32,000 nucleotides of DNA from Acaryochloris thomasi RCC1774 (GTDB lineage Bacteria; Cyanobacteriota; Cyanobacteriia; Thermosynechococcales; Thermosynechococcaceae). How positions within the stretch are numbered: the stretch's first letter is position 1; every line of letters begins with the position of its first letter. This document shows positions 1 to 18,148 of the stretch, one piece after another. Under the pieces are notes generated by a model. That model was not told where the DNA came from. It did no database searches and saw only the letters and a list, made by a program, of their open reading frames with translations. The position numbers and the translations under genes are program-made. Location of the stretch: contig NZ_PQWO01000003.1 in the NCBI RefSeq assembly GCF_003231495.1, positions 150,001 to 182,000 on the forward strand, written 5' to 3'.

Positions 1-149
1 CCTGTCGGTTCGCACTCCAGGCGCTTTGCGGGCATGGTGAACCCTCCTTAATCCCCGGTATTCGCCCGATTAATCCCCTAGATGTCTTAGACATTGTGCT
101 GATGCATCGCAAAGAAGGGGCATTTATCCTCGATACCTGGACAACCTAA
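1..149 (+). CDS. 3' end of an ORF running in from the left edge (...[16 protein letters not shown]). By position it is probably the small leading protein of the Nit1C-type cassette (MSMEG_0572/Sll0783-like).
   Basis: Frame 3 is open from the window edge to TAA at 147-149. The stop lies 2 nt before the nitrilase GTG at 152, which is operon-like packing. The family call rests on synteny only, because 49 aa is too little to recognise. Confidence 0.4.
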
Positions 150-151
150 CC

Positions 152-1171
152 GTGGACTATTCCCGAACCATACGAGCGGCAGCGGCTCAGATTAGTCCGG
201 TTTTGTTTAGTCGAGACGGGACTACTGAAAAGGTTTTAGATGCGATCTCATCCGCAGCCAAGGACGGGGTAGAGCTACTGGTTTTTCCAGAAACCTTTAT
301 CCCTTACTATCCGTATTTTTCGTTCGTGCAGCCTCCAGTGCTGATGGGTAAAGAACATATGCGCCTCTATGAAGAGGCCGTCACAGTTCCTAGCCCTGTC
401 ACCGATGCGGTTGGTCAAGCCGCTCGCACCCACAGCATGGTAATTGTTTTGGGCGTCAATGAACGGGACGCCGGATCGCTCTATAACACTCAGCTTATTT
501 TTGATGCCGACGGTACTCTGCTACTGAAGCGGCGCAAAATCACCCCCACCTATCACGAGCGCATGGTGTGGGGGCAGGGTGACGGGGCAGGCCTCCAGGT
601 TTTAGACACCGCCGTTGGTCGATTAGGTGCCCTAGCCTGTTGGGAACATTACAACCCCTTGGCGCGGTTTGCGTTGATGGCTCAGCACGAGCAGATCCAC
701 TGCGGTCAGTTCCCAGGGTCAATGGTCGGTCAAATCTTCGGTGACCAAATGGAGGTGACCATGCGCCACCATGCTTTAGAGTCAGGCTGTTTTGTGGTCA
801 ACGCCACCGGCTGGCTTTCCGAAGAGCAGAAGCAGCAAATTGTTACCGATGAAAAATTGCAGAAGGTGCTGAGCGGAGGCTGCTACACCGCCATCATTAG
901 TCCCGAAGGAGTACCGCTGTGTGAGCCAATTACGCAGGGGGAAGGGCTGGCTGTGGCAAATCTAGATTTTGCCTTAATCACCAAGCGCAAGCGCATGATG
1001 GATTCTGTCGGGCACTATGCCCGCCCCGACTTACTGCGGCTACTGCTTGACCAAGAGGCTTGGTCCGTTCTGGAGCAATCTGCTGGTCAATCACCGGTGA
1101 CAGATGCTGAGAATAGCCCTCTGCTAACGACTGCACCTGTTCCCATGTCTCTTACGACAGAGGCACTTTAA
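152..1171 (+). CDS. Nitrilase (carbon-nitrogen hydrolase superfamily, Nit1C-cluster type, Sll0784-like)
   Basis: 339-aa ORF. The Glu-Lys-Cys triad motifs are visible: VFPE(47)[10 protein letters not shown] and LAC(163)WEHYNP, with the Cys codon TGT at 638-640. The N-terminus IRAAAAQ is typical of nitrilases. It is followed by the canonical Nit1C partner genes. Confidence 0.93.
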
Positions 1172-1272
1172 AGCCTTGCGGACGGGGTGATCACCACAGT
1201 AATCACAATATATTTTACCCTAGAGCTGCAGCATCATGACAAGACCTGTCAGCGCTGGTTCGCTCTGCATTG

Positions 1273-1301
1273 GCCCCCCCGGCCCCCCAATTCTGGGGGG
1301 A
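1273..1301. repeat. G/C-homopolymer hairpin element (GCCCCCCCGG CCCCCC-aattct-GGGGGG)
   Basis: C6 (1283-1288) and G6 (1295-1300) flank a 6-nt loop, preceded by another C7 run. The element lies in the 210-bp spacer between the nitrilase and radical-SAM genes. Related C-run motifs occur at 2506-2520, 8044-8049 and 18114-18129. Confidence 0.6.
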
Positions 1302-1381
1302 GAAAGCTAGAGGCTTGGGTCATTCCCTTTGATTGCGAGGAATTGGGGAAACACAAGTGAAATGCTTTTGGTTCCTTCTAA

Positions 1382-2458
1382 ATGAACAAACAACAACTGA
1401 TTACAGAGCTGCAGTCCAGTGGCCTAAAGCTGGTGGACCCTAACGTAGGGGCTGCCGGACGCCGAGGCGGAGCCGGTCCTTCAGACCATAAGGCGGTCAC
1501 CATTGAGGGGACGACGGTGATGGTGCCGATTTACACCGGCACTGCCGATCAGTCTCCCTACACGGCGGAAGCGGATACCCTATTGCTCAAGCGAGAAGGT
1601 AAAGCCGTTGCCCCGCTCCACTTTCCGGAGCAGCCTCAGTTTTATGGTCTGGAGACTACCGACGGCATTCCCTACTGGAAGATTGCGCTGCTCCACAGCC
1701 ATGATGTGCTAGCGACGACGGTGCAGCAGACCTGTAAGCGATACCGCGATCCAGAAACGGTCTGTCAGTTCTGTGCCATTGAAAAGTCGCTGGATGCTGA
1801 CCGCACCATTGCCCGTAAAACGCCGGAACAGCTGGCTGAAGTCGCTGAAGCAGCCGTGCGCCTTGATGGGGTAACCCAAATGGTGATGACCACGGGGACG
1901 CCCAATACGTTAGATCGCGGTGCAGCCTATCTGACCGACTGCGCCCGAGCTGTGAAGGCCCGAGTGGATTTGCCGATTCAGGCCCAGTGCGAACCGCCGG
2001 ATGATTTTGGCTGGTTTGAGCGGATGAAAGCAGCGGGTATTGATAGCTTGGGCATGCACCTAGAGGCAGTGGAGGATGAGGTGCGATCGCAAATCATGCC
2101 CGGGAAGGCAGATGTGCCGGTGTCATTTTACTTTGAGGCATTTGAGGCCGCCGTGAAAGTCTTTGGTCGCGGACAGGTAAGTACCTATCTGCTGGCTGGC
2201 TTGGGGGATAGTGCAGAAACGCTGATTAAGACTTGCGATCGTTTGATCCAAATAGGGGTTTATCCTTTCGTGGTTCCCTTTGTACCGATTACGGAAACTC
2301 CACTGGCGGGGCATCCGGCTCCGACAGCGGAGTTCATGTTGACGATCTATCAGCAGGTGGGTGCATTGCTGAAGATATCTGATTTGTCTTCTGCAGAGAT
2401 GAAAGCAGGCTGTGCCAAGTGTGGTGCTTGTTCGGCTCTGTCTACGTTTGAGTCCTAG
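1382..2458 (+). CDS. Radical SAM-family protein of the Nit1C cassette (MSMEG_0568/Sll0785-like)
   Basis: 358-aa ORF next to the nitrilase. It has a Cys cluster C118-X9-C128-X2-C131 (QQTCKRYRDPETVCQFCAIE), a TIM-barrel-like middle region (MVMTTGTP, GIDSLGMHLEA) and a C-terminal CAKCGAC motif. The family call uses position in the cassette plus these motifs. Confidence 0.85.
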   Translation: MNKQQLITELQSSGLKLVDPNVGAAGRRGGAGPSDHKAVTIEGTTVMVPIYTGTADQSPYTAEADTLLLKREGKAVAPLHFPEQPQFYGLETTDGIPYWKIALLHSHDVLATTVQQTCKRYRDPETVCQFCAIEKSLDADRTIARKTPEQLAEVAEAAVRLDGVTQMVMTTGTPNTLDRGAAYLTDCARAVKARVDLPIQAQCEPPDDFGWFERMKAAGIDSLGMHLEAVEDEVRSQIMPGKADVPVSFYFEAFEAAVKVFGRGQVSTYLLAGLGDSAETLIKTCDRLIQIGVYPFVVPFVPITETPLAGHPAPTAEFMLTIYQQVGALLKISDLSSAEMKAGCAKCGACSALSTFES

Positions 2459-2484
2459 GAGGTGCTTTGAAAGAGATGTGTCAG

Positions 2485-2588
2485 TTGTGAGATCGGGCTG
2501 ATGATCCCCCCTAGCCCCCCTTGAGAAGGGAGAGCCAGAGTAATGGTCCCCCTTCTCAAGAGGGATTTAGGGGGATCTCACAATTTTT
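2485..2588 (+). repeat. Imperfect palindromic element of about 100 nt followed by T5. It may be a REP/MITE-like insertion and a possible internal terminator.
   Basis: Main hairpin: 2503-2530 pairs with 2550-2577. This includes gatccccc with gggggatc (8 bp) and cttgagaaggg with cccttctcaag (11 bp perfect). An alternative outer stem pairs ttgtgagatc (2485-2494) with gatctcacaa (2574-2583). TTTTT lies at 2584-2588. The element sits between the radical-SAM and GNAT genes. Confidence 0.65.
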
Positions 2589-2660
2589 AGCTATCCGAAA
2601 TGAGGCATTCAGTATATCTTTATCGTTCTCAAAATATCTGCAGTCCAAGAGGTTTGATTC

Positions 2661-3173
2661 ATGTCTGCCCAACGCTATACCTTTGAACTGGCCCGTTCTC
2701 AAACAGAAGTTGATGCCTACTTTGATCTGAGGCGCACTATCTTTTGCGAAGAGCAGGGACTGTTTGAAGGCCATGATGAAGATGGTATAGACGCGATCGC
2801 AACCCCCATCATCGCCATCGATCGTGAATCATCTAATCGGGTCGTCGGCGTTGTCAGAATATACGAAGATAACACCCGCCTCTGGTATGGCGGCAGGCTG
2901 GGCGTGCATCCTGACTATCGGCGCGTCGGTCGCATTGGCAAGGGACTCATATACAAGGCAGTTACAACCGCAAACACTTGGGGTTGCGATCGCTTCTTAG
3001 CCACTGTTCAACAGCAAAACGTACGCTTCTTTCAGCGGCAGCATTGGTTCTCGCTAGAAGAGATTGAGATTTGCGATCGCCCCCATCACCTCATGGAGGC
3101 AGAGCTAGACTTTTATCCACCAGGGAATGAACCACGCCCTGTGCTGACTCGGCCCGTGGCCCAAGCATCATAA
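2661..3173 (+). CDS. GNAT-family N-acetyltransferase of the Nit1C cassette (MSMEG_0567/Sll0786-like)
   Basis: 170-aa ORF. The GNAT motif-A-like segment is LGVHPDYRRVGRIGKGLIYKAV. The stop TAA (3171-3173) overlaps the next gene's ATG as TAATG. Confidence 0.85.
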   Translation: MSAQRYTFELARSQTEVDAYFDLRRTIFCEEQGLFEGHDEDGIDAIATPIIAIDRESSNRVVGVVRIYEDNTRLWYGGRLGVHPDYRRVGRIGKGLIYKAVTTANTWGCDRFLATVQQQNVRFFQRQHWFSLEEIEICDRPHHLMEAELDFYPPGNEPRPVLTRPVAQAS

Positions 3174-4141
3174 TGCTCACCGAGCTAGCGGCAAACCTAC
3201 GGCAAACGCTGGGTATCTTGCACAAACAAGATATTCAACCCGTAGCCCATCACCTCGGTCGCTGGGTTCCCGATAATACGACGGATTCTCCGATCTGGCT
3301 GGGCGATGACTGTGCTGCGATTCCCGATGGCGAAGGCTACTTACTACTGGCCGCAGAAGGGATGTGGTCGGTCTTGGTAGAGACAGAACCCTGGTTTGCA
3401 GGCTGGTGTGGTGTCTTGGTCAACGTCAGCGATATCTATGCAATGGGAGGCAAGCCGGTCGCCGTCGTCGATGCCCTCTGGAGTCGCTCAGTCGAACAGT
3501 CTCAGCAGATCTGGGAAGGCATGAAAGCGGCATCAAAAGCCTTCAACGTCCCGATTGTGGGCGGACACACCCACTGCCACAGTCCCTATGAAGCGCTATC
3601 GGTGGCAATTCTAGGACGCGCGCAGCATCTGATTACAAGCTTTAACGCTCAACTTGGTGACACCCTATTGCTGGTCACGGATTTCAATGGCAAACCGCAT
3701 CCTAAATATCCATTTTGGGATGCCGCGACGATGGCAGAGCCTGCAGTTTTGCAGGCCAATCTCGATTTACTGCCGACCCTAGCGGCTGCTGGTCTGTGTG
3801 ATGCAGGTAAAGACGTCAGCATGGGTGGTTTAGTGGGCACATTGTTGATGCTCTTAGAAACATCCGGCTGTGGCGCTATTTTGGACCTTGACTGCGTTCC
3901 TGTGCCCTCTAGCTTGAGCTTGGAGCAATGGCTGGTAAGCTTTCCTAGCTATGGATTTTTACTCAGTGTGCGACCTAAAAAAGTTGCTTCAATTCAGACT
4001 TTATTCCGTCAACAGGAACTTGTCTGTGATGCGATCGGGCAGATTACAGAAGGACAGGCCTTAACATTCCAGGCTGGCTCTAAATCAACCTGCTTTTGGA
4101 ACTTGAGCCAAGATCCGCTCACTGGCTTTTCTAAATTGTGA
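3173..4141 (+). CDS. AIR synthase-related (PurM/HypE/ThiL superfamily) protein, Sll0787-like
   Basis: 322-aa ORF. The N-terminal LGDDCAAI and DIYAMGGKP segments and the later GGHT segment are typical of the PurM-superfamily ATP-binding fold. It is translationally coupled to the GNAT gene. Confidence 0.85.
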   Translation: MLTELAANLRQTLGILHKQDIQPVAHHLGRWVPDNTTDSPIWLGDDCAAIPDGEGYLLLAAEGMWSVLVETEPWFAGWCGVLVNVSDIYAMGGKPVAVVDALWSRSVEQSQQIWEGMKAASKAFNVPIVGGHTHCHSPYEALSVAILGRAQHLITSFNAQLGDTLLLVTDFNGKPHPKYPFWDAATMAEPAVLQANLDLLPTLAAAGLCDAGKDVSMGGLVGTLLMLLETSGCGAILDLDCVPVPSSLSLEQWLVSFPSYGFLLSVRPKKVASIQTLFRQQELVCDAIGQITEGQALTFQAGSKSTCFWNLSQDPLTGFSKL

Positions 4142-4153
4142 GAAGAGCTGGGA

Positions 4154-4933
4154 TTAAGAGATTTCGTCTGGGTTGATGCCTTGCGATCGCAAATAATTCT
4201 CCAGCCGCTCTTTCTGTTGCCGTTCCTGATCTGCCCGTTGTCGTTCCTGATCTGCCTGCTGTTGGGCAACATCCTCCGGTAAAGGGATCAACTCTCCCTC
4301 TGCCGTATACCAGCGTAGCTGTCGGTCATAGATGCCTAGTGCTAAGCCCAACTGCTCACTTTTCAATTTGCCATCCGTGAGTTCAATTTCAACATAGGTT
4401 CCACCCATGAGCCGAAATCCAGCAAACTCCATCGTCTCTGGATGAAACCAGTAATACTCCGGTACACGCCAGACGTCCTGATAGAGATCTTTCTTCTTAC
4501 CCCGATCAATCGCCGCCGTGGAATCAGACAGCAGCTCAATCACAAGATTGGGATATTTGCCCCCTTCTTCCCAAATGGCCCAACTACGGCGGTTCTTTTT
4601 CTCTGCGCCGAGGACAACGAAAACATCAGGCCCCTTAAAGTCTTGTGATTTAAGCTGTTTCTCGTTGTAGTAAACAGTGAGATTCCCAGAGATATAAAAG
4701 TCTGAGCGGTCTCTCCACCAATATTTCAGCAGCCGGAGTAGAAGATCAATCTGGTCGCGGTGAAAGTCAGTTTCCAAAGGTGGCTCATCGCTATACAAAT
4801 TTGTAGGTAATCGCTGAACGGTATCAGGGACTTCTTCTTGAATTGATTGTGGCGGGTTAGCTTCAAGACGAACCACTGCAGGACTCTCCAGCAAAACTGC
4901 CCTCAGTTTAGCGCAGAGGTATTGAGGCATCAT
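4154..4933 (-). CDS. Uma2-family (DUF820) putative restriction-endonuclease-like protein
   Basis: 259-aa ORF with the characteristic pattern YSDEPPLETDFHRDQI...PDVFVV...LVIELLSDST...D...K..Y. The family is highly expanded in cyanobacteria. It lies antisense inside the nit cassette. The C-terminus carries a 7-aa tandem duplication, ADQERQR/ADQERQQ. Confidence 0.85.
   Translation of the reverse strand: MMPQYLCAKLRAVLLESPAVVRLEANPPQSIQEEVPDTVQRLPTNLYSDEPPLETDFHRDQIDLLLRLLKYWWRDRSDFYISGNLTVYYNEKQLKSQDFKGPDVFVVLGAEKKNRRSWAIWEEGGKYPNLVIELLSDSTAAIDRGKKKDLYQDVWRVPEYYWFHPETMEFAGFRLMGGTYVEIELTDGKLKSEQLGLALGIYDRQLRWYTAEGELIPLPEDVAQQQADQERQRADQERQQKERLENYLRSQGINPDEIS
4221..4256 (-). repeat. 21-bp in-frame tandem duplication within the Uma2 gene
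   Basis: cgttcctgatctgcc occurs at 4221-4235 and again at 4242-4256 (period 21 bp). It encodes ADQERQR/ADQERQQ. Confidence 0.8.
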
Positions 4934-4987
4934 GTGACCCCTTTAAGAAATATCGGCACCCAGATTTGAATCAGTCGCCTTATCGCA

Positions 4988-6142
4988 ATGTCTAGATCAT
5001 CACTCTCGATCGCGCTCCTCACCTATGCAACCAAACCTCGGGGCAGCGTCATCCACACTCTAGAGCTAGCGACAGCTCTCACCGCCCTTGGGCATCACGT
5101 CTGTGTCTACGCTCTTGATAAAGATGGAAAAGGATTTGAGCGATCGCTTCCCTTTCCAACGCAACTCGTTCCGGCTCAAGACGCGCCTAAAGACATCGAC
5201 GTCCTTATCCAGCAGCGAATCCAGGAATTTATAGGCTTCTTTACAGCTCATCCCCACCATCACGATATCTATCACGCCCAAGACTGCATTGGTGCCAATG
5301 CCTTGATCCAACTGCGACAGTCGCAAACAATTCCCCACGTTGTTCGCACCGTGCATCATGTCGAAGACTTTCAAAGTCCCTATCTGCAGCAGTGCCAAGA
5401 TCGCTCGATTCAGGAGCCTGACTTGTGTTTGTGCGTCAGCGATCGCTGGCAGCAAGCTCTACAGAAGGAGTATTACATTGAAGCTCCCCGCGTCCTCAAC
5501 GGCGTCGATCTCAACCGATTCTCACCGGAACTGTCGGGCCAAGAGATTGAACTACAAAAACGCTACGGCCTCAATGACTCTCCGACTTATCTAACGGTGG
5601 GTGGCATTGAGCCTCGGAAAAACTCACTCCGACTGCTGCAGGCATTTGCCCAAGTTTTACGCAGCCACCCTCAAGCTCAACTGGTGATCGCAGGGGGGGC
5701 AACTCTATTTGACTATCAGCCCTATCGAGACCAGTTCTTTCAGCTTGCCGATCAGTTCAATATTGCCGTAGGTCGGTCCTTAATTTTGCCGGGTGTGGTG
5801 ACCAATGCAGAGTTACCTGCACTCTATCGCTGTGCGGATGTGTTCTGTTTTCCTTCAACAACAGAGGGCTGGGGGTTGGTCGTACTGGAAGCGATCGCAT
5901 CCCATCTCCCCGTCATTCTTTCTAATCAGCCACCATTCACAGAGTTCCTATCGACCGAGCAGGCGCTGTTTGTGGAACCTGAAGATGAGGACGCCATTGC
6001 TTTGGCCATGCAGTCTGCCTTAGACCCACGATTGGCACAGACGCTGATCACAAACAGCTATACAATCTTGCAAAACTATACATGGAAGAAATCCGCACAG
6101 CTTCATCTCCAGCACTACCAAGCGTTGCTGTACACCCGCTGA
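4988..6142 (+). CDS. Family-4 (GT-B) glycosyltransferase of the Nit1C cassette (MSMEG_0565-like)
   Basis: 384-aa ORF. The N-terminal segment YATKPRGSVIHTLELA and the C-terminal E-X7-E region FPSTTEGWGLVVLEAIA are typical of the GT4 fold. Confidence 0.9.
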   Translation: MSRSSLSIALLTYATKPRGSVIHTLELATALTALGHHVCVYALDKDGKGFERSLPFPTQLVPAQDAPKDIDVLIQQRIQEFIGFFTAHPHHHDIYHAQDCIGANALIQLRQSQTIPHVVRTVHHVEDFQSPYLQQCQDRSIQEPDLCLCVSDRWQQALQKEYYIEAPRVLNGVDLNRFSPELSGQEIELQKRYGLNDSPTYLTVGGIEPRKNSLRLLQAFAQVLRSHPQAQLVIAGGATLFDYQPYRDQFFQLADQFNIAVGRSLILPGVVTNAELPALYRCADVFCFPSTTEGWGLVVLEAIASHLPVILSNQPPFTEFLSTEQALFVEPEDEDAIALAMQSALDPRLAQTLITNSYTILQNYTWKKSAQLHLQHYQALLYTR

Positions 6143-6173
6143 ATACCCGAATAAACCTTATCCACTGAAGACA

Positions 6174-6461
6174 ATGCCTGAAATGCGTTTTCAAATCGAA
6201 TGGCCCGACGGTACCCAGGAGACCTGCTACTCACCATCACTTGTGGTCAAGGACTATCTAGCCGTAGGCGAGACCTATAGCCTTGAAGAGTTTGTGACCA
6301 AAATAAGAGCAGCTCTGAAGATTGCGAGCGATCGCGTCCAGGCAAAATATGGCTTTCCCTGCGGTCTTGCCCTGGGACAACTAAAAGAAATTGAGTCAAA
6401 AGCTATGGGCTACCGTGACTTACCCGACCCCAAAGTTCGTGCCATTCAATTTATCGAATAA
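6174..6461 (+). CDS. Small conserved protein of the Nit1C cassette (MSMEG_0570-family-like)
   Basis: 95-aa ORF 31 nt downstream of the GT gene on the same strand. Its size and position match the small hypothetical protein of this cassette. I recognised no catalytic motif. Confidence 0.7.
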   Translation: MPEMRFQIEWPDGTQETCYSPSLVVKDYLAVGETYSLEEFVTKIRAALKIASDRVQAKYGFPCGLALGQLKEIESKAMGYRDLPDPKVRAIQFIE

Positions 6462-6704
6462 AAGCCTGCATTCGGGCAAGATTCACGCGATCAGCAGACT
6501 TTAGATGATTACCAAAACTATACATAGTTGACCGTGGTTCTGTAGCCTATTTGGCATTTTCGCTTCTGTTAAAGGCACTATCGTTCACTTATAGAACGGC
6601 CAACGATCGGTCCATCACCCTATCGTTTTATCTCAAGTGCCTTTGCAGCCATTCTGTCACTGAAACGTCCTACAATGAACGGCTTCATCACTGGCCCCAG
6701 TGGA

Positions 6705-6732
6705 CTTCTAGAGCAGAAGCTGCATTTTTTTT
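6705..6732 (+). terminator. Possible weak intrinsic terminator downstream of the nit cassette
   Basis: A short hairpin CTTCT-agagc-AGAAG (6705-6719) is followed, after ctgca, by a T8 run (6725-6732). The stem is only 5 bp, so this call is tentative. Confidence 0.35.
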
Positions 6733-6809
6733 AATATTTAATTAGGGCGGAAATCGTTTTTTGTCTAGCCCTTCACCAATCAACAGAAATATCTGAAGGA
6801 GTGAAAGCT

Positions 6810-7997
6810 ATGCCTGAAACCCTCTTCAAAATTGATCTAACAAAGCCAATGCACGCACAGGAAGTGCCAGGACATAATCGTTGGCACCCTGAGATTCCGG
6901 CTGTGGTCAATGTGAAACCGGGCGATAGCTTCAGAATTGAATGCAAAGACTGGACCGACGGCCAAATTAAGAATGATGATGACCCCAGCGATATTCGAGA
7001 TGTTGAACTGTCTGTTGTTCATGTTCTAAGCGGTCCAATTCGTGTCGAAGGGGCAGAACCAGGCGATATTTTGGTAGTTGATCTGCTCGATATCGGCGCA
7101 CTGCGTGGAGATGAGTGGGGCTTTACAGGCATCTTTGATCGCGAGAATGGAGGTGGTTTTCTGACCGATCATTTTCCTGACGCCGCCAAAGCCTGCTGGG
7201 ATTTACAGGGCATCTACACCAGCACCCGTCATATTCCTGGCGTCAAGTTTGCGGGCATTACCCATCCCGGCCTGATTGGCTGCGCTCCGTCTGCTGAATT
7301 ATTGGCGACCTGGAACAAGCGAGAGAAAGCCCTGGTTGATAAAGGCGGACCACCTTGGAAGCCCCCTATCCCAGCCCTAGCAGAGTTGCCGAATCCTAAA
7401 AACGCGGTTCTAGGAACGCTGGCAGCATCTGAATTCGATCGAGTCGCAGCAGAAGCAGCTCGAACGGTTCCGCCGCGCGAGCATGGTGGCAACTGCGACA
7501 TCAAGAATCTCTCAAAAGGATCTCGCATTTACTTTCCGGTGTATGTCGATGGAGCCAATCTATCTATGGGAGATATTCACTTCTCTCAGGGAGATGGCGA
7601 GATTTCTTTCTGCGGCGCGATTGAGATGTCAGGGTATATCGACCTGCACGTGGATCTGATTAAGGGCGGCGTGGAAAAGTATGGCATGGTTAACCCCATC
7701 TTCAAGCCCGGTCCCGTGGAACCGCAGTATTCTGAATATCTAATTTTTGAAGGCATATCGGTTGATGAACATACAGGTGAACAGTACTACCTAGATGCCC
7801 ATGTCGCCTACCGACGGGCCTGCCTCAATGCAATTGAGTATCTCAAGAAGTTTGGCTACACGGGCGAACAAGCTTACCTACTACTAAGCTGCGCCCCCGT
7901 TGAAGGCCGCGTCAGCGGTATTGTTGACATCCCAAATGCGTGCTGCACGTTGGCACTGCCCACGGGTATCTTCGATAAAAGCATCTTGCCAACCTAG
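6810..7997 (+). CDS. fmdA: Formamidase / acetamidase (FmdA_AmdA family)
   Basis: The ORF opens at GTG 6801, but ATG 6810 is preceded by GAAGGAG (6795-6801). The N-terminus reads MPETLFKIDLTKP...HNRWHPEIP...KPGDSFRIEC.DWTDGQI.N and is strongly FmdA-like. Length is about 395 aa. Confidence 0.9.
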   Translation: MPETLFKIDLTKPMHAQEVPGHNRWHPEIPAVVNVKPGDSFRIECKDWTDGQIKNDDDPSDIRDVELSVVHVLSGPIRVEGAEPGDILVVDLLDIGALRGDEWGFTGIFDRENGGGFLTDHFPDAAKACWDLQGIYTSTRHIPGVKFAGITHPGLIGCAPSAELLATWNKREKALVDKGGPPWKPPIPALAELPNPKNAVLGTLAASEFDRVAAEAARTVPPREHGGNCDIKNLSKGSRIYFPVYVDGANLSMGDIHFSQGDGEISFCGAIEMSGYIDLHVDLIKGGVEKYGMVNPIFKPGPVEPQYSEYLIFEGISVDEHTGEQYYLDAHVAYRRACLNAIEYLKKFGYTGEQAYLLLSCAPVEGRVSGIVDIPNACCTLALPTGIFDKSILPT

Positions 7998-8092
7998 CTT
8001 TAGGGAGGGGCTTAGCTACGCGACTAGATAAAGTTAGGCAAGCCCCCCTCTCTTCATGCTCCGACATTAAAACTTCAGCAAGGAGAGTTCCG

Positions 8093-8380
8093 ATGCCGCT
8101 CTACGACTTTCGCTGTGAGACCTGTGGCGAGTTTGATGCATGGCAAACGCTAGCTGAGCTAGATCAGCCGATGCCCTGCCCAACCTGCCCAGCCACTACG
8201 AAGCGTCTCTTTTCAGCTTCAAATATTAGCTTAAGTTCCGGCAAGTTAAGGACGATGGACCGTCAAGTTGCTTCAGAACCTAGGGTTGTAAAACGCGATC
8301 GCAACCCCACCCCCCCGAGACACCAAGCGTCTAAAAACCCTAGACCTTGGATGGTTGGTCATTCAACCCAAAGACTCTAA
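8093..8380 (+). CDS. fmdB: FmdB-family zinc-ribbon putative regulatory protein
   Basis: The N-terminus MPLYDFRCETCGEFD...PCPTCPA gives CxxC...CxxC. An AAGGAG RBS lies upstream. The position downstream of fmdA matches the classical fmdA-fmdB pairing. Confidence 0.8.
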   Translation: MPLYDFRCETCGEFDAWQTLAELDQPMPCPTCPATTKRLFSASNISLSSGKLRTMDRQVASEPRVVKRDRNPTPPRHQASKNPRPWMVGHSTQRL

Positions 8381-8388
8381 CCCCACAT

Positions 8389-9519
8389 TCAACGTCGCAA
8401 ATCTTGAATAATGGCCTTGAGGGAACGCTCTTGGGCTTCGATGCTCTCAGTCAGCTTGAACTGAACCAGTGCCCGCGCCAGATTATGGTCTGGATATTGG
8501 GTCTTGAAGTAGCGATCGCCCATTAGATAGTCGGTAAAAAAGCGCAGCCCTAACTCAAAAGCAATCAGACGGATAGCATCAAACAGATAGTCGTAGTCTG
8601 TTGGCGTCAGAAAGCTGCGAGCCACGGACAGATAGCCCTGCAAAACGGCCTGACTCAGATCTAAATCAAAGCAAACACTTTCCCACTGATCAGTTTCTTC
8701 ACCCAATGGGTTACAGCTCGATCTAAGACAGTCGCCAATGTCGTAATGGACTAAGCCGGGTTTCACGGTATCCAAATCAATCAGGCTAACGGCTTGGCCA
8801 GTCACTGCATCAATCATGATGTTATTGATCTTGGGATCACCATGCATCAAACGCAGCGGCAGCAGACCTTTTGCCTTCGCTGTCTCTAGAGTGTGGGCCA
8901 GGGAGGTGCGATCGCAAATAAACGCCCGACAATAGTTCACCTCCGGCGACGAACCCATCGAGTTCTGCTCTAGAACCGACTCATACTGCTGCAGATAGCG
9001 AGGCGTAATGTGGAATCCCTCCAGCGTATCCGCCAACTGTTCAGACGGCAGGTCGCTGATCAGATGATGAAACATCCCTAAGCCATAGCCAACCTCACGA
9101 GCATGATCCAAACTTTGGATCGTATCGAAAGACTGAGCCGCATCAATAAAGCTAATGGCCCGCCAAACCGTCCCGTCAGACTCTAGCCAATGATCCTGCT
9201 GGGACTGCGTCAACAGCACCTGAGGAACATCCCATCGCCGCTCGGCACAGAGCACATCAGTTCGCTGCCTCTGGCGCACATGCTCCGTAAACGTTCGCAT
9301 ATTCCGCATCACCAGCTCTGGCTGACGGAAAACATGCGTATTAATGCGCTGCAGAACAAAGGGGGCCTCACCAGAATCCAGCGTCACCAAATAGGTATCG
9401 TTAACGTTGCCTTGACCAAACTCTTGAGCGGTCGCCACTCGTCCCTTCTGTGCAAATTGAGCCGCGATGGTGAGAATGCGATCCACAGCTGCTCCCTCTG
9501 TCTCAGTCACTGATGTCAT
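8389..9519 (-). CDS. APH/choline-kinase-fold phosphotransferase (N-acetylhexosamine-1-kinase-like)
   Basis: It has a Brenner-type motif LMHGDPKINNIMID followed by LIDLDTV, and a glycine-rich-loop equivalent EFGQGNVNDTY. The ORF extends to 9564, but ATG at 9519 (MTSVTETEG...) is the more plausible start. Confidence 0.8.
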   Translation of the reverse strand: MTSVTETEGAAVDRILTIAAQFAQKGRVATAQEFGQGNVNDTYLVTLDSGEAPFVLQRINTHVFRQPELVMRNMRTFTEHVRQRQRTDVLCAERRWDVPQVLLTQSQQDHWLESDGTVWRAISFIDAAQSFDTIQSLDHAREVGYGLGMFHHLISDLPSEQLADTLEGFHITPRYLQQYESVLEQNSMGSSPEVNYCRAFICDRTSLAHTLETAKAKGLLPLRLMHGDPKINNIMIDAVTGQAVSLIDLDTVKPGLVHYDIGDCLRSSCNPLGEETDQWESVCFDLDLSQAVLQGYLSVARSFLTPTDYDYLFDAIRLIAFELGLRFFTDYLMGDRYFKTQYPDHNLARALVQFKLTESIEAQERSLKAIIQDLRR

Positions 9520-9829
9520 GGTGTGGCGTACGGAAAATCTTGGCCTTCGCCCAGTATGGCGCACATCTTAGCACCAACCTGCAGTCTTCTCGCCGTCTTA
9601 AGGTTCGCCTCATGTTTGACTGGTACAGTCAAACCGTTGTGGCAATGATTCTGACTCAGCGCAAGGCCGCTAGCTCCACCAAGCGAATCACATAAGCTGC
9701 GTTCAGAGCGTGGTAGACGTACACTTCACGATCCGCTCAGGATGCTTGATGACGAGCACCACCACTGAGCTACACGACTAGCTTTTTTATCCCTTCTTGG
9801 AATATTCACTCACAACAAAAGGAGACCCC

Positions 9830-10477
9830 ATGAGTTTAACAACCGATCTTCAGACACAGAAAGAGCAATTCCTGGCCAACGTTCCTGATGAGACAGTTCA
9901 GGTAATGGGCAAAGCGACCCAGGCTCTAGCAGAGTCAGGCATCGTAGATCAAAGCCTGAAGGCAGGTCAGCAGGCTCCCCCTGTGCAGCTCCCTAACGCC
10001 ACTGGAAACACCATCGATCTGCAGGAACTCTTAAAGTCTGGCCCAGTGGTACTCAGCTTCTATCGCGGTCAGTGGTGTCCTTACTGCAACTTAGAGTTAC
10101 GCGCTCTGCAGCAGATCCTACCCGAGATTCAGACACTGGGCGCTAGCCTCGTCGCAGTTTCACCGCAAACACCGGATAGTTCACTCTCAACGGTCGAGAA
10201 GAATGAACTGACCTACGAAGTTCTGAGCGATGTCGGCAATCAGGTGGCTCGGGCCTATGGTCTGGTCTTTAAGCTACCCGAGCATCTGCGCCCAATTTAT
10301 AACAGCTTCGGGATTGACGTCCCCGCCCACAATGGAGACTCATCTTTTGAACTCCCGATTGCCGCCACCTATGTGATCGCAACAGACGGCACAATTGCCC
10401 ATGCCTTCATTGATGCCGACTACACACAGCGCTTAGATCCAGAGGCAATTTTGACAGCTCTCAAGACTCTTAGCTAA
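9830..10477 (+). CDS. Peroxiredoxin-like / AhpC-TSA thioredoxin-fold protein
   Basis: The motif FYRGQWCPYCNLELRAL is typical of PRX-like2 proteins. ATG 9830 is preceded by GGAG (9821-9824). The ORF-track start TTG 9797 is less likely. Confidence 0.85.
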   Translation: MSLTTDLQTQKEQFLANVPDETVQVMGKATQALAESGIVDQSLKAGQQAPPVQLPNATGNTIDLQELLKSGPVVLSFYRGQWCPYCNLELRALQQILPEIQTLGASLVAVSPQTPDSSLSTVEKNELTYEVLSDVGNQVARAYGLVFKLPEHLRPIYNSFGIDVPAHNGDSSFELPIAATYVIATDGTIAHAFIDADYTQRLDPEAILTALKTLS

Positions 10478-11168
10478 CGGAGCTGCAAGGCTCAAGCTTC
10501 CGAAAATATTTTGAATGGAAGCAGCGATATTCGTCATTTGAGAAGTCCCCTCTAGTCTCCTTTGGGAGAGACGTGTTCTTGTCTCGTTTTCCAGAGAGAT
10601 TGAGGGGGCTTTTGCAAGAAATCAGCATCAATTACAAAAAGAGGTGTTTCCTCTAGAGAAAAATACCGGTGAGCACAAAAAACGTCCGTCATTGATTCTG
10701 AGTTAGGTTTGCGCAGGCTTCTCCGTTGAAGGCAAGTGAGCAGCGTTAAAGAAACCAGAGTACTCACTAGAAGGGTCTACATCCAGGTATCCCGCATACT
10801 TCGTGCGGTCTAGGCGTTTGGGATTAGGCGTCGGGGCTTTCTTCTGTGGCTTAGAGCCTGGGCTTTCGTGAGTAATCTTGCGCATAGCTTAAAAACGTAT
10901 TTATACTTAGCCTCCATCCTTGGCAATACAGCCTAAAAACGGTGTGATTTAGATCACTTGCTAAGTCAACGGCTAAAGTTCAGAAGCGCCAAGACACAAA
11001 AGAAGGTAGCTCGATAATTGGCAGAGAAGCTGAAGCCACAGAAGCAAAAGGGCTATCTTACAGTGCTGTGACATCCATGCTTCAACGTCAGATATAGCGT
11101 TTTCAAAAATCCTTGCAACAGAGTCCCATCTGCTCCCGGATGGCGCTTGCCACCCGGAGAGGCAGACA

Positions 11169-13073
11169 TCAAAACACGAAGTTGTCGGCGCTGAGGTCAT
11201 TAACATCAAACGAATCCAGCGTGATTGTTGTCCCAGCTAGATCATCAATCACCGCATTGCCGCCCACTGACGTAATGTGATTATTGAACAGGTCCGTGGC
11301 GTCAGAGATACCGCTGATTCCCGCGAGATCGATCACCTCGGCAGACGCGAAGTCAAGGATGATATTGGCTCCGTTGTTGTCCTCAAAGATGAATGTGTCG
11401 TTGCCGCCGCCACCCGTGAGTTCATCATCGCCAGCGCCGCCAACAAGGATGTCATTACCAGCGCTGCCAAAGAGTGCATCTCTGCCCACACCGCCGATGA
11501 GGGTGTCACGACCCGCGCCGCCGATCAGGGTATCATTACCATTCCCGCCATTGAGCAGGTCATTGCCACCTTGACCCAGTAGCTCATCACTGTTGTCCTG
11601 GCCATTGAGGATGTCACTCCCCGCACCACCGATGAGGGTGTCATTACCAACTCCACCATTGAGGAGGTCATTGCCACCTTGGCCGAGAATCTCATCGCTG
11701 TTGCCCTGGCCGTTAAGGGTGTCACTGCCCGTGCCGCCTATGAGAGTGTCATTACCCGTTCCACCATTAAGGAGGTCATTGCCACCTTGGCCGAAGAGTT
11801 CATCGCTGTTGCCTTGGCCATTGAGAGTGTCGTTACCATTCCCGCCCTCTAGGAGGTCATTGCCGTTGCCGCCCTCTAGGAGGTCATTGCCGCTTTGACC
11901 GAAGAGTTCATCGCTGTTGCCTTGGCCATTGAGGGTGTCATTGCCTGCGCCGCCTTCGAGAGTGTCATTGCCGTTCTCGCCTGAGAGTTCGTTGTTATCC
12001 CCGTTGCCCACCAGGAGGTCATTGCCCGCATCACCTCGGATGTTGAGATCGTTGAATAATATAGATACGTTGGCATCGTCTTCGTTAACAATGGCTAGGT
12101 CCAAGTCGCCATCGCTATCCAAGTCCTCTGCAACGACTGCAAATGGGTTATCTCCCACCGCAAAGGTGGATGGAGTTTCAAAACCTCCATTTCCATCGCC
12201 TAACAGCACTGATACGTTATCGTTGTTGCGGTTAGCAGTGGCTAAGTCCAGATTGCCATCTCCATTTAAGTCGCCGACTGTGACTGAGAATGGACTATTC
12301 TCCACTGCGAAGGTCGATTGGGGCGCAAACCCTCCATTTCCATCGCCCAACAACACTGAGACTGTGTCATCGTCCTCGTTCGCTGTCACCAGATCTGCAT
12401 TACCATCCCCATTAAAGTCGCCGACGGCAACTGAGAATGGATTATCCCCCACTGCGAAGGTCGCTTGAGGTGCAAACCCTCCATTGCCATCGCCTAACAG
12501 CACTGAAACTGTGTCATCAAACTGGTTTGCCGTTACTAGATCTAAGTTTCCATCCCCATTAAAGTCCCTGATGGCGACGTCCTCTGGCTCATCTCCCACT
12601 GCGAAGGTCAATTGAGGTGCAAACCCACCATTTCCATCACCCAACAGCACTGAGACTGTGTCATCGTCCTCGTTCGCTGTTACGAGGTCAGCATTGCCGT
12701 CTCCATTAAAGTCCCCGATGGCAACTGAGTTTGCATTCAAACCTACTGCGAAGGTTGCTTGAGGCGCAAACCCACCATTCCCATCACCCAACAGCACCGA
12801 TACATTACTGTCGTCACGGTTGACCGTCACCAGATCAGCGTTTCCATCCCCATTAAAGTCTCCAATGTCTAGGTCCTGTGGCTCATCTCCTACTGCGAAG
12901 GTCGATTGAGGTGCAAACCCACCATTCCCATCACCTAACAGCACTGAGACCGTGTCATCGTTCTCGTTCGCTGTTACGAGATCTACATTTCCATCCCCAT
13001 CAAAGTCTTCGAAGGCAATTCCCTCTGGACTATTTCCCACATCGAAGTTAACTGCATCTTGAAATGTCGCCAT
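11169..13073 (-). CDS. Secreted FG-GAP (7-blade beta-propeller) plus RTX calcium-binding repeat protein, a probable type I secretion substrate
   Basis: Seven exact 49-aa periods of [35 protein letters not shown] start at ORF-track aa 31, 80, 129, 178, 227, 276 and 325. About 24 GGxGxDxL nonapeptides follow. There is no N-terminal signal peptide, and the non-repeat C-terminus ends DNFVF. ATG 13073 follows GAGGG, and the ORF-track start 13097 is less likely. Confidence 0.9.
11505..11936 (-). repeat. In-frame 108-bp (36-aa, four RTX nonapeptides) tandem repeat, three clean copies plus one divergent copy
   Basis: The unit [36 protein letters not shown] is repeated at aa 424-459, 460-495 and 496-531, with a variant at 388-423. 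The corresponding DNA motif aggtcattgccaccttg recurs about every 108 bp. Confidence 0.85.
12048..13013 (-). repeat. In-frame 147-bp (49-aa) FG-GAP repeat array, 7 copies
   Basis: The period is exactly 49 aa. Blades 3 and 5 share 34 identical residues. Their DNA (12612-12713 versus 12318-12419) shares an identical 33-nt run but differs at about a dozen mostly synonymous sites. Confidence 0.9.
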
Positions 13074-13271
13074 GATTATTTCCCTCTCTAGAATCAATTT
13101 GTGAGTAATTCAAACCCCATCTGCATTGCTTTTGGGGGTTATAAGTGGCTGCTTGCATTGCCGCTCGGGTCGAAAACTTGACTCCGGATAAAAAATCCAG
13201 GTTCGTCAATTTCAACTGCCCTCGACTAATTTGATTAGACTCTGCAGATGGCTATCTTCAGGGCTGAGAAA

Positions 13272-13302: not shown

Positions 13303-13542
13303 AAAGATGCAATTGTGAACGAGGTTCAATCCTGGGTGATCAATCATGGACGATTTAGGAAAATATTCGCAGCCGAAATCGAACCCTCTGTATCAATGGT
13401 TTTGTTACAAGGAGTGGAGCTGGAGATATTTTTTTGAGAGCCTTGCCAGCTTTAGATTACAGTTATGTCTATGGATCGCCCCTTCAGATATCGCCAATAT
13501 CCATAGCGCCGTTGCGCGAAAGACCTAATGCTCTAGCTGATA

Positions 13543-14331
13543 TTAGTTAGGCTCTGAAAGTTGCAAGTCCTTTAATTTCTCACCAGTCCGCAATATCTGC
13601 CCAGCTAGCATCGCAGCCCCAAAGCCGTTATCAATATTGACAACCCCCATACCTGTCGCGCAGGAGTTAAGCATCGTCAGCAGCGGCGCAAGGCCGTTAA
13701 AACTAGCACCGTAGCCAACACTAGTGGGAACCGCGATCACAGGTACGTCGGCAAGACCCGTGACGACGCTGCCGAGTGCGCCCTCCATACCGGCCACCAC
13801 AATTAAAACCTGAGATTGAGCAATGATGTCTCGATTGTTGAGTAGCCGATGGATTCCTGCCACCCCCACATCCCAAAGGCGCTGTACTTTGAAACCGCAG
13901 AGATTGGCCGTAACAGCCGCTTCTTCAGCAACGGGTAAGTCAGCGGTGCCCGCCGTGATAATACCAATCTGACCGGGATAGCGAGGCACAGAAGGCAGAG
14001 TCGTGGTCGCACAGATCTGGGCCTGTTCGTAATAGTGCAGCTCTAAGTGCTGCTGGAGCTGTGCATAGACCTCTGGAGCAATGCGGGTCGCCATCACGCA
14101 GGGATAGGCACTCATCGCCTGAAAGATCTTGATAATTTGCTCTGGGGTTTTGTCCAGCCCCCAGATCACCTCCGGGAAACCAGTGCGTAAGGCTCGATGG
14201 TGATCGACACGAGCAAAGTCTTCGACAGGCTCGTAGGCAAAATATTTAAGTTTTTCTAGGGCTGCATCGGGACTCAGGTCACCGGCTGCAACATTACGCA
14301 GCATCTGGCGGAGGGCATCAGGATTTGTCAC
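13543..14331 (-). CDS. larB: LarB-type nickel-pincer cofactor biosynthesis protein (PurE-like carboxylase/hydrolase)
   Basis: 262-aa ORF. The N-terminal segment GDLSPDAALEKLK...ARVDHHRALRTGFPEVIWG and the C-terminal PurE-fold segment GIITAGTADLPVAEEA...VIVVAGMEGALGSVV match the LarB architecture. Confidence 0.85.
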   Translation of the reverse strand: MTNPDALRQMLRNVAAGDLSPDAALEKLKYFAYEPVEDFARVDHHRALRTGFPEVIWGLDKTPEQIIKIFQAMSAYPCVMATRIAPEVYAQLQQHLELHYYEQAQICATTTLPSVPRYPGQIGIITAGTADLPVAEEAAVTANLCGFKVQRLWDVGVAGIHRLLNNRDIIAQSQVLIVVAGMEGALGSVVTGLADVPVIAVPTSVGYGASFNGLAPLLTMLNSCATGMGVVNIDNGFGAAMLAGQILRTGEKLKDLQLSEPN

Positions 14332-14498
14332 AGGAAGAGATTAAATCTACGTCTTAATTCTAGAAGCTGCGTGGGGACTCGGCAGATCATTCTCCCTAGC
14401 TAGAATCAGCCGTGATCGGATGGGCATTGTCAGGGTTCAACAAAGTTGATTACTCTAAAGGTGGTGAGGACGTTTTGTTCACAGGAAAGGAAACCAGC

Positions 14499-14879
14499 AT
14501 GGACGAGAATAACGTAACGGATGTCTTGAAGAAAGGCTTTCAGGTGACGCTGGGAGCAGCAACGTCATTGGCCGAGTCACTTCAGGATGAACGGAAGCGA
14601 GAGGAGAATCTCTCTCAGCTCAATCTTGGTTTTGACAAAGTAACTGAGATTTGGGCTGAGAAGGGGGCCGTCACCGAAGTTGAAGGCCGAAAGATGATTG
14701 ACACAATGGTGGAGCAGTACGGCCCCAACGCCAACAGTTACTCAACGCCAGGGACAACGCCAACCTCGACGTCACCGGGTGTCGATCCAGGGCTGCATCA
14801 AGAGCTGCGCGACTTGACAACGCAGCTAGCTGCGATCAGAACAGAGCTGACGCAAACCAGCCCAGATAAAGATTCTTAA
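14499..14879 (+). CDS. Small hypothetical protein, phasin-like (COG3937-like pattern), with a low-complexity T/P/S tail
   Basis: ATG 14499 follows AGGAAAGG. The pattern LKKGFQVTLGAATSLAESL...KGAVTEVEGRKMID resembles the PHA-regulator/phasin family. The ORF-track start 14412 is less likely. The functional call is weak. Confidence 0.5.
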   Translation: MDENNVTDVLKKGFQVTLGAATSLAESLQDERKREENLSQLNLGFDKVTEIWAEKGAVTEVEGRKMIDTMVEQYGPNANSYSTPGTTPTSTSPGVDPGLHQELRDLTTQLAAIRTELTQTSPDKDS

Positions 14880-16305: not shown

Positions 16306-16715
16306 CATGTACAGAATAGCTAGAGCCATACAGCAACTGAAGTCTACGCCCGAGAAAGCGATCCTAACTCAGCCGGGCCCTTCGATGAATCGGGAGGTTA
16401 TTCAAGGGCAGTAAGAGAACGCAGATCAACTTCCACAAAACAGACAGACAAGCCTCTAGTGGCCATCTCATGCGCTAATAATGCCCGTCCAATCACAACT
16501 ATATTTTCCAAATTCACAGGTCGAGAACAAGCAAACAACTATTATTTTGAGTCTAGATCTTTACCCAGAATTGCAATATTTGGCCTACAGGCAAACCATG
16601 CCCTGAAACTGGCATTGACGAGAACCAATACGAATGGTTAATTTCAGCAATCAACCTATTCCCAACAAGACAACTTAATGGCTATCAGCGAACGAGCTGA
16701 AACCGCTAGCAAGCT

Positions 16716-17735: not shown

Positions 17736-18148
17736 AACAGGCGTTCTCTATATCTATACAATAGGAATACAGGCATCACAGAACAGAGACAACCTTGCTC
17801 TTGAAGATCTCGAAGATATTGTTATTCTAATTCAGAACAAAAATTTTTCTTACCACTCTTACCACTCATTCAAATATCAAATTATTTATCCATTATATTT
17901 TCAAGCCATTGTTTCAATAATAGCCAGCAGCAACCAAGTGCCTCAACGTCACTGCTGAAAATCTCAACAACAGAGGAAAGCAGCACAAGCCTTAGGGAAC
18001 CATCCGGAACTCGCAGAAAAGGGTCATGCGCTCCGAGAACCTTGAGCAGAGTAGGTTACATAAGTCTAGATTTTATCGATCGAGAGAATATAAACGGGTG
18101 ACGAGAAGAATACGCCCCCTATCCCCCCCTTGCTCAGGTTAACACCAC

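Follow-up and report, generated by a model that had tools for sequence, protein, structure and literature searches.

A glycosyltransferase-containing copy of the Nit1C nitrilase cluster in Acaryochloris thomasi RCC1774

Introduction

What is the purpose of Nit1C, a nitrilase gene cluster that is tightly conserved in cyanobacteria, proteobacteria, and actinobacteria and has stood as a puzzle since 2005? We approached this question through a stretch of 32,000 nucleotides from the cyanobacterium Acaryochloris thomasi RCC1774 (contig NZ_PQWO01000003.1, positions 150,001 to 182,000 of the forward strand; hereafter the window, with all coordinates counted from its first base). The first 6,461 nucleotides of this window are, as judged from curated protein family models, almost certainly an intact copy of this already described cluster.

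Podar, Eads, and Richardson defined Nit1C in 2005, when its function was without experimental evidence, as a set of seven genes that includes a flavin oxidoreductase and no glycosyltransferase (GT) (PMC1199592). In M. smegmatis, the corresponding cluster comprises eight open reading frames (ORFs), numbered MSMEG_0565-0572 (PMC6039565). An initial annotation of the window, made from the letters of the sequence without database searches, had recognized seven co-oriented ORFs as this gene set and proposed that it builds a nitrile and later hydrolyzes it. Here we describe how the locus compares to known clusters, what its individual proteins suggest about a shared pathway, and which explanations of its function we consider probable.

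Results

The window encodes members of the curated Nit1C protein families

We compared the encoded proteins to NCBIfam, which contains the TIGRFAM models, at the curated cut-offs and scanned them against Pfam alongside. The ORF list reproduces all seven ORFs of the initial annotation, of which six are complete and all lie on the plus strand. Each of the six complete proteins scores above the cut-off of its family, so that the earlier assignment to Nit1C and to the families around MSMEG_0565-0572 and Synechocystis Sll0783-Sll0787 holds at the trusted cut-offs at which it had been proposed to be checked, and the accession range named for these families, TIGR04042-TIGR04049, is right. All six align along the whole length of their family profiles (E-values of 1e-37 to 1e-180), well past what chance would produce, and every complete gene is full length with no frameshift or internal stop.

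The leftmost gene encodes NitB of the Sll0783/MSMEG_0572 family and is cut by the window edge, leaving the last 48 codons in frame 3 (bases 3-149, with the stop codon TAA at 147-149). This 48-residue fragment aligns to positions 112-158 of the 159 positions of TIGR04044 with 72.5 bits, the full-length cut-off of 109.85 being out of reach for a fragment. Its place just before the nitrilase gene is that of ORF1 in the definition of Podar and colleagues, a highly conserved hypothetical protein of 160-163 amino acids. The fragment is followed by the gene of NitC, a subfamily-1 nitrilase of the Nit6803 (nitrile_sll0784) family with 339 amino acids and a GTG start (152-1171; TIGR04048, 581.7 bits at a cut-off of 502.6), and by that of NitD, a radical SAM protein of the MSMEG_0568 family with 358 amino acids (1382-2458; TIGR04043, 597.4 bits at a cut-off of 303.7; also NF045502). 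The next two genes encode NitE, a GNAT acyltransferase of the MSMEG_0567/Sll0786 family with 170 amino acids (2661-3173; TIGR04045, 231.5 bits at a cut-off of 68.45; PF00583), and NitF, an aminoimidazole ribonucleotide synthase-like (AIRS-like) protein of the sll0787 family and PurM superfamily with 322 amino acids (3173-4141; TIGR04049, 476.3 bits at a cut-off of 321.3; PF00586 and PF02769). Further downstream lie the genes of an MSMEG_0565-family GT4 glycosyltransferase with 384 amino acids (4988-6142; TIGR04047, 512.8 bits at a cut-off of 259.85) and of a small protein of the MSMEG_0570 family (NitG or ssl1464 type) with 95 amino acids (6174-6461; TIGR04042, 127.6 bits at a cut-off of 79.85). 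The nitrilase also matches the structure of Synechocystis Nit6803 (PDB 3WUY) with 590 bits and identical FPETF, KRRKITP, and LACWEH stretches, and the small protein is 100% identical to C1752_01241 of A. thomasi RCC1774.

Gene content and order match the eight-gene version of the cluster

The closest counterpart in layout is found in the alpha-proteobacterium Tistrella mobilis (locus L083), where eight co-oriented genes encode NitB, nitrilase, radical SAM protein, GNAT, AIRS-like protein, GT, small protein, and a flavoprotein. The window matches this locus gene for gene, including the position of the GT between the AIRS-like and small-protein genes. Since it has the GT and the Tistrella gene order, the A. 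thomasi cluster is, in terms of its gene families, the GT-containing eight-gene version of Nit1C with six of the seven canonical genes of Podar and colleagues plus the GT. Equating the locus with their Nit1C is thus correct for these six genes but not for the GT, which is not among their seven, nor for the flavoprotein, which is not in the window.

The clusters of Pseudomonas, nitBCDEFGH of P. pseudoalcaligenes CECT5344 and P. fluorescens NCIMB 11764, contain the same families in the same order from NitB to a small protein of about 100 amino acids. Compared to these and to the Nit1C of Podar and colleagues, the window lacks the flavin oxidoreductase NitH and carries the GT4 gene, which they described as an insertion seen in beta-proteobacteria (PMC1199592), as well as an interrupting Uma2-family gene described below. 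The cluster of Synechocystis sp. PCC 6803 (sll0783-sll0787-ssl1464) contains orthologues that are 49-87% identical and arranged in the same order, but its six genes include no GT and end at a transposase, and its flavoprotein gene is divergently transcribed directly upstream, in a position outside the window. The GNAT and AIRS-like proteins, which have separate genes in the window, are parts of a fusion family in M. smegmatis (TIGR04050, MSMEG_0567 type), and the putative aliphatic amidase MSMEG_0566 lies inside the cluster of that species (PMC6039565), whereas the only amidase-type gene near the A. thomasi cluster encodes the non-homologous formamidase FmdA and lies outside of it.

Sequence identity to the two reference clusters differs considerably between the individual proteins. 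The NitB fragment is 87% identical to both Synechocystis and Tistrella, followed by the nitrilase (77% and 68%, respectively), the radical SAM protein (71% and 60%), the GNAT (66% and 48%), the AIRS-like protein (64% and 42%), and the small protein (49% and 52%), while the GT is 43% identical to that of Tistrella and has no Synechocystis counterpart for comparison.

The genes are packed like an operon only in part

Two of the junctions are as tight as the initial annotation had described them. A 2-nt gap (cc, 150-151) separates the stop codon of nitB from the GTG of the nitrilase gene at 152, and the TAATG at 3171-3175 has one base in common to the stop codon of the GNAT gene and the start codon of the AIRS-like gene. 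The GT and small-protein genes are separated by 31 nt. Contrasting with this packing are two spacers that are long for an operon, one of 210 nt between the nitrilase and radical SAM genes (1172-1381), which shows no unusual structure (fold z = -0.57), and one of 202 nt between the radical SAM and GNAT genes (2459-2660). Furthermore, the 846-nt interval 4141-4988 is occupied by a minus-strand ORF (4154-4933) that encodes a putative Uma2-family endonuclease of 259 amino acids (PF05685, 80.8 bits). The seven ORFs therefore do share the plus strand, as had been noted, but do not form one unbroken co-oriented block, and this minus-strand gene had been missed, as had the length of the two spacers.

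The cluster is conserved across cyanobacteria, with the GT as a variable part

The neighborhood comparison across cyanobacteria that had been suggested with the initial annotation was based on 80 cyanobacterial loci from a scan with the radical SAM protein, whose homologues in these loci are 70-78% identical to the query. The gene order of the window recurs in this set, and the succession of Sll0783, nitrilase, radical SAM, GNAT, and AIRS-like genes is kept in nearly all loci that extend far enough. Among the 46 loci with at least 3 kb of sequence beyond the AIRS-like gene, 27 have the GT, 21 the small-protein gene, and 20 both, so the GT is absent from about 40% of cyanobacterial loci in addition to the Synechocystis cluster. 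Where the GT follows the AIRS-like gene, the gap between them is 3-59 nt in 18 of 25 loci.

In 49 of the 80 loci, the gene for the flavoprotein of related clusters (TIGR04046, recognized in two relatives with 672 and 704 bits) is the immediate upstream neighbor of the Sll0783 gene, with either orientation. The corresponding gene of A. thomasi probably lies just off the left edge of the window. Among the Pfam-scanned ORFs of 1-32000, we found no pyridine-nucleotide or flavin oxidoreductase. The flavoprotein of related clusters matches the N-hydroxylating monooxygenase family PF13434 and weakly resembles the disulfide reductase YpdA (60 bits). Similarly weak resemblance is seen between the GT4 of the window and MshA and BshA (68 and 52 bits, respectively), and a comparison of this protein to PDB gave only generic matches (SPS, PimB, and MshA) that suggest no substrate.

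The radical SAM protein carries two cysteine motifs and is linked to GNAT by gene fusions

The canonical CX3CX2C motif of radical SAM enzymes is not present in the radical SAM protein of the window. Its cluster motif is instead C118-x9-C128-x2-C131, and a second motif, C344-x2-C347-x2-C350, is located at the C-terminus. The cysteines of both motifs do not vary among 81 cyanobacterial sequences, and their conservation is 90-98% across 85 diverse representatives (30-63% identity); the wider family (P0180-P0329) mostly has CX8-9CX2C together with a conserved C-terminal GCxxCxxC. Two additional cysteines, C187 and C203, are invariant in the cyanobacterial Nit1C set only. Since the protein passes the thresholds of PF04055 (50.3 versus 29.5 bits) and of the variant_rSAM model NF045502 (195 versus 125 bits) without a CX3CX2C motif, it belongs by these models to the radical SAM superfamily as a variant-motif member, and a second Fe-S cluster is a reasonable inference. 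Among NCBIfam models, it is weakly similar to the lipoyl synthases LipS2 and LipA, while a sequence search of PDB gave no relative.

Seven of the ten long members of the wider radical SAM family are fusions of radical SAM and GNAT domains in either order. Likewise, the AIRS-like protein of the window also matches TIGR04050, the C-terminal model of the fused MSMEG_0567 family, so that a family of GNAT-AIRS fusions exists as well. These two kinds of fusions argue that the radical SAM, GNAT, and AIRS-like proteins may work jointly, either on one substrate or in one complex. An architectural analogy is provided by Elp3, in which a radical SAM domain and a GNAT/KAT domain act together on acetyl-CoA within one polypeptide. 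Elp3 nevertheless shows no sequence relationship to the radical SAM protein of the window among its NCBIfam matches, and the motif of the latter is CX9CX2C. For the GNAT itself, the only PDB match is puromycin acetyltransferase with 21 bits, which suggests no substrate.

After its own family, the AIRS-like protein scores highest in NCBIfam with methanogenesis marker 2 (280.6 bits), followed by ThiL (93.3 bits), and its nearest solved structures are ThiL, PurL, and SelD. ATP-dependent activation of an oxygen is the shared chemistry of the PurM superfamily. One superfamily member is HypE, the carbamoyl dehydratase of [NiFe]-hydrogenase maturation, which has PF00586 and PF02769 in common with the AIRS-like protein and had inspired the proposal that the latter synthesizes a nitrile in the same way. 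This chemistry is permissible, but we found no specific support for it. Compared to PDB chains, the AIRS-like protein matches HypE with only 24 bits and ThiL with 44 bits, the HypE family is absent from its 18 NCBIfam matches at E <= 0.001, and it ends in ...LTGFSKL without the C-terminal acceptor cysteine of HypE.

NitB is extremely conserved and has a predicted DsrE-like fold

Alignment of the NitB fragment to 20 full-length homologues from related loci revealed a single invariant cysteine of the family, C113, which is the first residue of the fragment and encoded by bases 3-5 of the window. In a homologue search with the full-length protein of Acaryochloris marina, proteobacterial NitB homologues were 86-88% identical to this query, and the Synechocystis and Tistrella proteins are 85% identical to each other. 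Across the homologues (P0330-P0449, and loci L081 and L083 at 10001-10483), the NitB protein (160 amino acids) of cyanobacteria and proteobacteria is 83-93% identical, far above the other genes of the cluster. This extreme conservation suggests many interaction surfaces or a recent horizontal spread.

Sequence comparison of NitB to the Pfam DsrE model (PF02635) gave 11.8-15.7 bits, below the threshold of 22.7, and a profile search against PDB gave no match. However, the six best PDB matches of the AlphaFold model of Synechocystis NitB, whose mean predicted local distance difference test score (pLDDT) of 66.5 is moderate, are all DsrE- or DsrF-like (probability 1.00, E 1e-5 to 5e-3), in agreement with earlier tentative DsrE-type assignments (PMC1199592, PMC6039565). 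The small protein is modeled by AlphaFold2 with a pLDDT of 96.9, yet this model has no significant fold match in PDB (best E = 0.33, TM-score <= 0.38). It contains two invariant cysteines, C18 and C63, that are part of CYSPSL and PCG motifs.

Local insertions and adjacent amidase genes

The junction after the AIRS-like gene is interrupted in other cyanobacteria as well. Two other loci have a Uma2 gene separating the AIRS-like gene from the GT (L046, 9874-10434, and L075, 3756-4313, both on the plus strand), and a third locus has one directly after the AIRS-like gene (L019, 12680-13222, minus strand). The Uma2 protein of the window is unrelated to all three at the BLASTP level (E = 0.9). This junction therefore seems, as far as the compared loci tell, to be a recurrent insertion-permissive site that was used in at least three independent lineages. 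By the same comparison, the Uma2 gene is an insertion rather than a pathway member, and we attach no pathway meaning to it.

An imperfect hairpin of about 100 nt (2484-2583) was detected by inverted repeat and fold energy (-61 kcal/mol, z = -5.9) in the spacer between the radical SAM and GNAT genes. The element occurs only once in the window, none of 84 related loci contains its core, and it belongs to no Rfam family. We conclude that a small palindromic element was probably inserted here, one that does not belong to the pathway. More generally, Rfam gave nothing at gathering thresholds in the whole window and only two chance-level matches at E <= 1 in 1-9000, one of which is simply this hairpin.

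Directly downstream of the cluster on the same strand, after an AT-rich spacer of 339 nt, lies a gene for an FmdA-type formamidase (6810-7997; NF045496, 685.4 bits at a cut-off of 500). The ORF list starts this gene with GTG at 6801, but the ATG at 6810 is preceded by GGAG. It is followed by a plus-strand gene for the FmdA partner FmdB, a zinc-ribbon protein (8093-8380; TIGR02605, 58 bits at a cut-off of 31.3; PF09723). The initial annotation had overlooked this gene pair. We considered FmdA as an integral member of the cluster and rejected this idea, as none of the 80 related cyanobacterial loci carries it within 10 kb. The formamidase gene is probably a transcription unit of its own, and a functional link to the cluster is possible. 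Just past the two genes, we observed genes for an APH-family phosphotransferase (8389-9564, minus strand) and an AhpC/TSA peroxiredoxin (9797-10477, plus strand).

Other clusters are associated with amidases, too. In a Pseudanabaena locus (L057), a gene for the aliphatic amidase AmiE is inserted between the AIRS-like and GT genes (13467-14552; 704 bits at a cut-off of 427), and the same gene begins at the end of a second Pseudanabaena contig (L061, 11813-12019). MSMEG_0566 within the M. smegmatis cluster is a putative aliphatic amidase (PMC6039565). Together with FmdA of A. thomasi, these three amidase associations, which involve two unrelated folds, are a hint that the pathway may release an amide by-product.

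Regulation and physiology of Nit1C clusters

The literature summary given with the initial annotation was essentially right, and its view that the substrate, product, and reaction order of the pathway have yet to be established agrees with published work (PMC7815647, PMC11049912), but it omitted a proposed cyanohydrin substrate and the redox phenotype of two distant organisms. Our own search of the literature with varied vocabulary retrieved no paper establishing the pathway product or the reaction order. In P. pseudoalcaligenes, mutants in nitA, nitB, and nitC do not grow on cyanide or aliphatic nitriles (PMC5939895), and the substrate proposed for NitC is oxaloacetate cyanohydrin, which forms chemically from cyanide and oxaloacetate (PMC5939895, PMC11049912). 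Purified Nit11764 of P. fluorescens prefers cinnamonitrile and fumaronitrile and uses cyanide poorly, and its authors called the physiological role unclear and discussed a possible biosynthetic metabolon (PMC7815647). Nitrogen starvation induces the Synechocystis operon sll0783-ssl1464 and ammonium represses it. The operon is a direct target of NtcA, whose binding was seen by chromatin immunoprecipitation at sll0783 (PMC5714215, PMC10094980), and an sll0783 mutant has a lowered NADPH/NADP ratio and reduced polyhydroxybutyrate (PHB) (PMC3901256). The cluster of M. smegmatis, known as gpr, is induced more than 500-fold through GlnR. Its expression increases the NADPH/NADP ratio and makes the cells resistant to peroxide, to which a gpr deletion mutant is sensitive (PMC6039565). 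Marine picocyanobacteria of low-nitrogen waters widely carry the cluster, with enrichment where the ocean is low in nitrogen and replete in iron (PMC10119275).

The sigma-54 activator NitA is encoded beside the Pseudomonas cluster, but no such regulator is expected in A. thomasi because cyanobacteria use NtcA. The NtcA box GTAN8TAC has a single match in the 32 kb of the window, at 24963, which is far from the cluster and below chance expectation; the promoter of the cluster itself lies off the window. Scans for sigma-70 promoters and terminators gave fewer sites than shuffled sequences and no plus-strand promoter near the GT.

The remainder of the window

The rest of the window contains ordinary cyanobacterial genes, and the octamer GCGATCGC (HIP1) is frequent in and between genes throughout, as is typical of cyanobacterial chromosomes. 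A minus-strand gene at 11169-13097 encodes a protein of 642 amino acids with FG-GAP and RTX calcium-binding repeats, which at the DNA level appear as six repeat copies at 147-nt spacing and thirteen copies spaced by 27 nt. Another minus-strand gene (13543-14331) encodes a protein of 262 amino acids with a C-terminal AIR-carboxylase domain (PurE-like, PF00731) that may be of the LarB type rather than PurE. The region 16000-20000 has a lower G+C content (0.40-0.47) and strong AT skew and carries genes for an Acyl_transf_3 acyltransferase, a WecG/TagA glycosyltransferase, and a polysaccharide flippase-type protein; it may be a surface-polysaccharide islet.

Discussion

Our working model, which we consider probable if only just and hold mostly for its general shape, is that the cluster as a whole functions as a nitrogen-scavenging module. 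As the output step, the nitrilase would free ammonium from a nitrile, which could be an unsaturated one or a cyanohydrin derived from cyanide. The radical SAM, GNAT, and AIRS-like proteins would act as one unit to make or modify a common small molecule or protein-bound group, with the AIRS-like protein using ATP to activate an oxygen. Carrier, partner, or scaffold roles rather than enzymatic ones would fall to the DsrE-like NitB and its one invariant cysteine and to the small protein with two, while the GT and the flavoprotein would be accessory and the GT optional. In A. thomasi, the adjacent FmdA could recover nitrogen from formamide, which is known to arise as a side product of cyanide or nitrile hydrolysis, a link that would be specific to this genome.

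Several observations weigh against this model. Beyond its poor use of cyanide, Nit11764 shows modest efficiency even on its best nitriles, and the authors of that study question whether supplying nitrogen is all it does (PMC7815647). In Synechocystis and M. smegmatis, the phenotypes concern redox functions (NADPH/NADP, PHB, and peroxide) and not the loss of a nitrogen source (PMC3901256, PMC6039565). The structural assignment of NitB comes from a model of moderate quality (pLDDT 66.5) with a sub-threshold Pfam DsrE score (15.7 versus 22.7). Given that FmdA is found in 0/80 related loci, its adjacency in A. thomasi may be a coincidence. Finally, the Uma2 insertion may uncouple the GT and small-protein genes from the operon promoter.

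The redox phenotypes are the starting point of an explanation to which we give a minor though real chance, namely that the product of the cluster, either a small molecule with redox activity or sulfur or a group bound to a protein, maintains the reduced state of the nitrogen-starved cell, with the nitrilase as a processing step. It would account for the NADPH/NADP phenotype in two distant organisms and the peroxide resistance of M. smegmatis (PMC3901256, PMC6039565), and it fits with the predicted DsrE-like fold and invariant cysteine of NitB, with the extra CX2CX2C motif and weak LipS2/LipA similarity of the radical SAM protein, and with the YpdA-like and MshA/BshA-like traits of flavoprotein and GT4 (60 bits, and 68 and 52 bits, respectively). 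GT4, GNAT, YpdA-like flavoprotein, and DsrE-like carrier could even be arranged into a thiol pathway in the style of mycothiol or bacillithiol, but since each of these resemblances scores far under the cut-off of its family and is generic to the respective superfamily, we keep such a thiol-cofactor pathway only as a rival. No thiol or cofactor has been detected, and a redox function gives no reason why growth on cyanide and nitriles should depend on nitB and nitC (PMC5939895). The proposal of the initial annotation shares the nitrilase as ammonium-releasing step with our working model but has the nitrile made by the cell itself. The AIRS-like and radical SAM proteins would build it in the manner of HypE, using ATP to dehydrate an amide or a carbamoyl group, GNAT and GT would tailor a carrier, and the nitrilase would later free the ammonium of what would be a nitrile store or nitrogen-salvage system. 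Both PurM-superfamily domains are present in the AIRS-like protein and make the required oxygen activation plausible, and the flavoprotein of related clusters matches N-hydroxylating monooxygenases (PF13434). Precedents exist both for making a nitrile, in preQ0 biosynthesis with the radical SAM enzyme QueE and the ATP-dependent nitrile synthase QueC, and for turning nitriles over, in plants that process cyanogenic glycosides through nitrilases. The nitrilase of the cluster, too, belongs to a bona fide family of nitrile hydrolases (PMC7815647). We nevertheless regard the proposal as quite unlikely. HypE is only a distant relative of the AIRS-like protein, which lacks the acceptor cysteine and is much closer to methanogenesis marker 2 and the kinase ThiL, and the GT, being absent from Synechocystis and about 40% of cyanobacterial loci, cannot be essential to a carrier. 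Moreover, a cell that builds a nitrile only to hydrolyze it gains no nitrogen on balance, although it is nitrogen starvation that induces the cluster.

An altogether different explanation would be that the A. thomasi copy is a decaying remnant and no longer a working operon, as might be read from the minus-strand gene between the AIRS-like and GT genes and from the 210-nt and 202-nt spacers with their inserted hairpin. This we consider highly improbable, as all genes are full length, cover their family profiles, and lack frameshifts or internal stops, other species have insertions at this junction while keeping their genes intact, and the radical SAM protein remains 70-78% identical to its relatives in the 80 loci.

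A bolder idea is tentative and in our view rather doubtful. The trio of radical SAM, GNAT, and AIRS-like proteins, joined by the DsrE-like NitB and by the small protein with its two cysteines and unmatched fold, would make a novel metabolite or protein-bound group via a nitrile or amide stage and thereby control both nitrogen recovery and NADPH balance during nitrogen starvation. If this were true, the recurrent non-homologous amidases (FmdA in A. thomasi, AmiE in Pseudanabaena, and MSMEG_0566 in M. smegmatis) would mark the amide as a real intermediate or by-product.

Nit1C was already known, and the A. thomasi locus adds a further intact copy from a genome that had been sequenced and annotated automatically. 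Its local peculiarities, the Uma2 insertion, spacer hairpin, and adjacent formamidase, are minor, and it is not more tractable than the copies of model organisms. What the comparison adds are experimental handles: the radical SAM protein with its two motifs, the radical SAM-GNAT fusions, NitB with its DsrE-like predicted fold and extreme conservation, the small protein with its unmatched fold, and the neighboring amidases. The nitrilase is the sole Nit1C enzyme with a known reaction type, and solving the function of the cluster would extend our view of microbial nitrogen scavenging and probably reveal new radical SAM chemistry.

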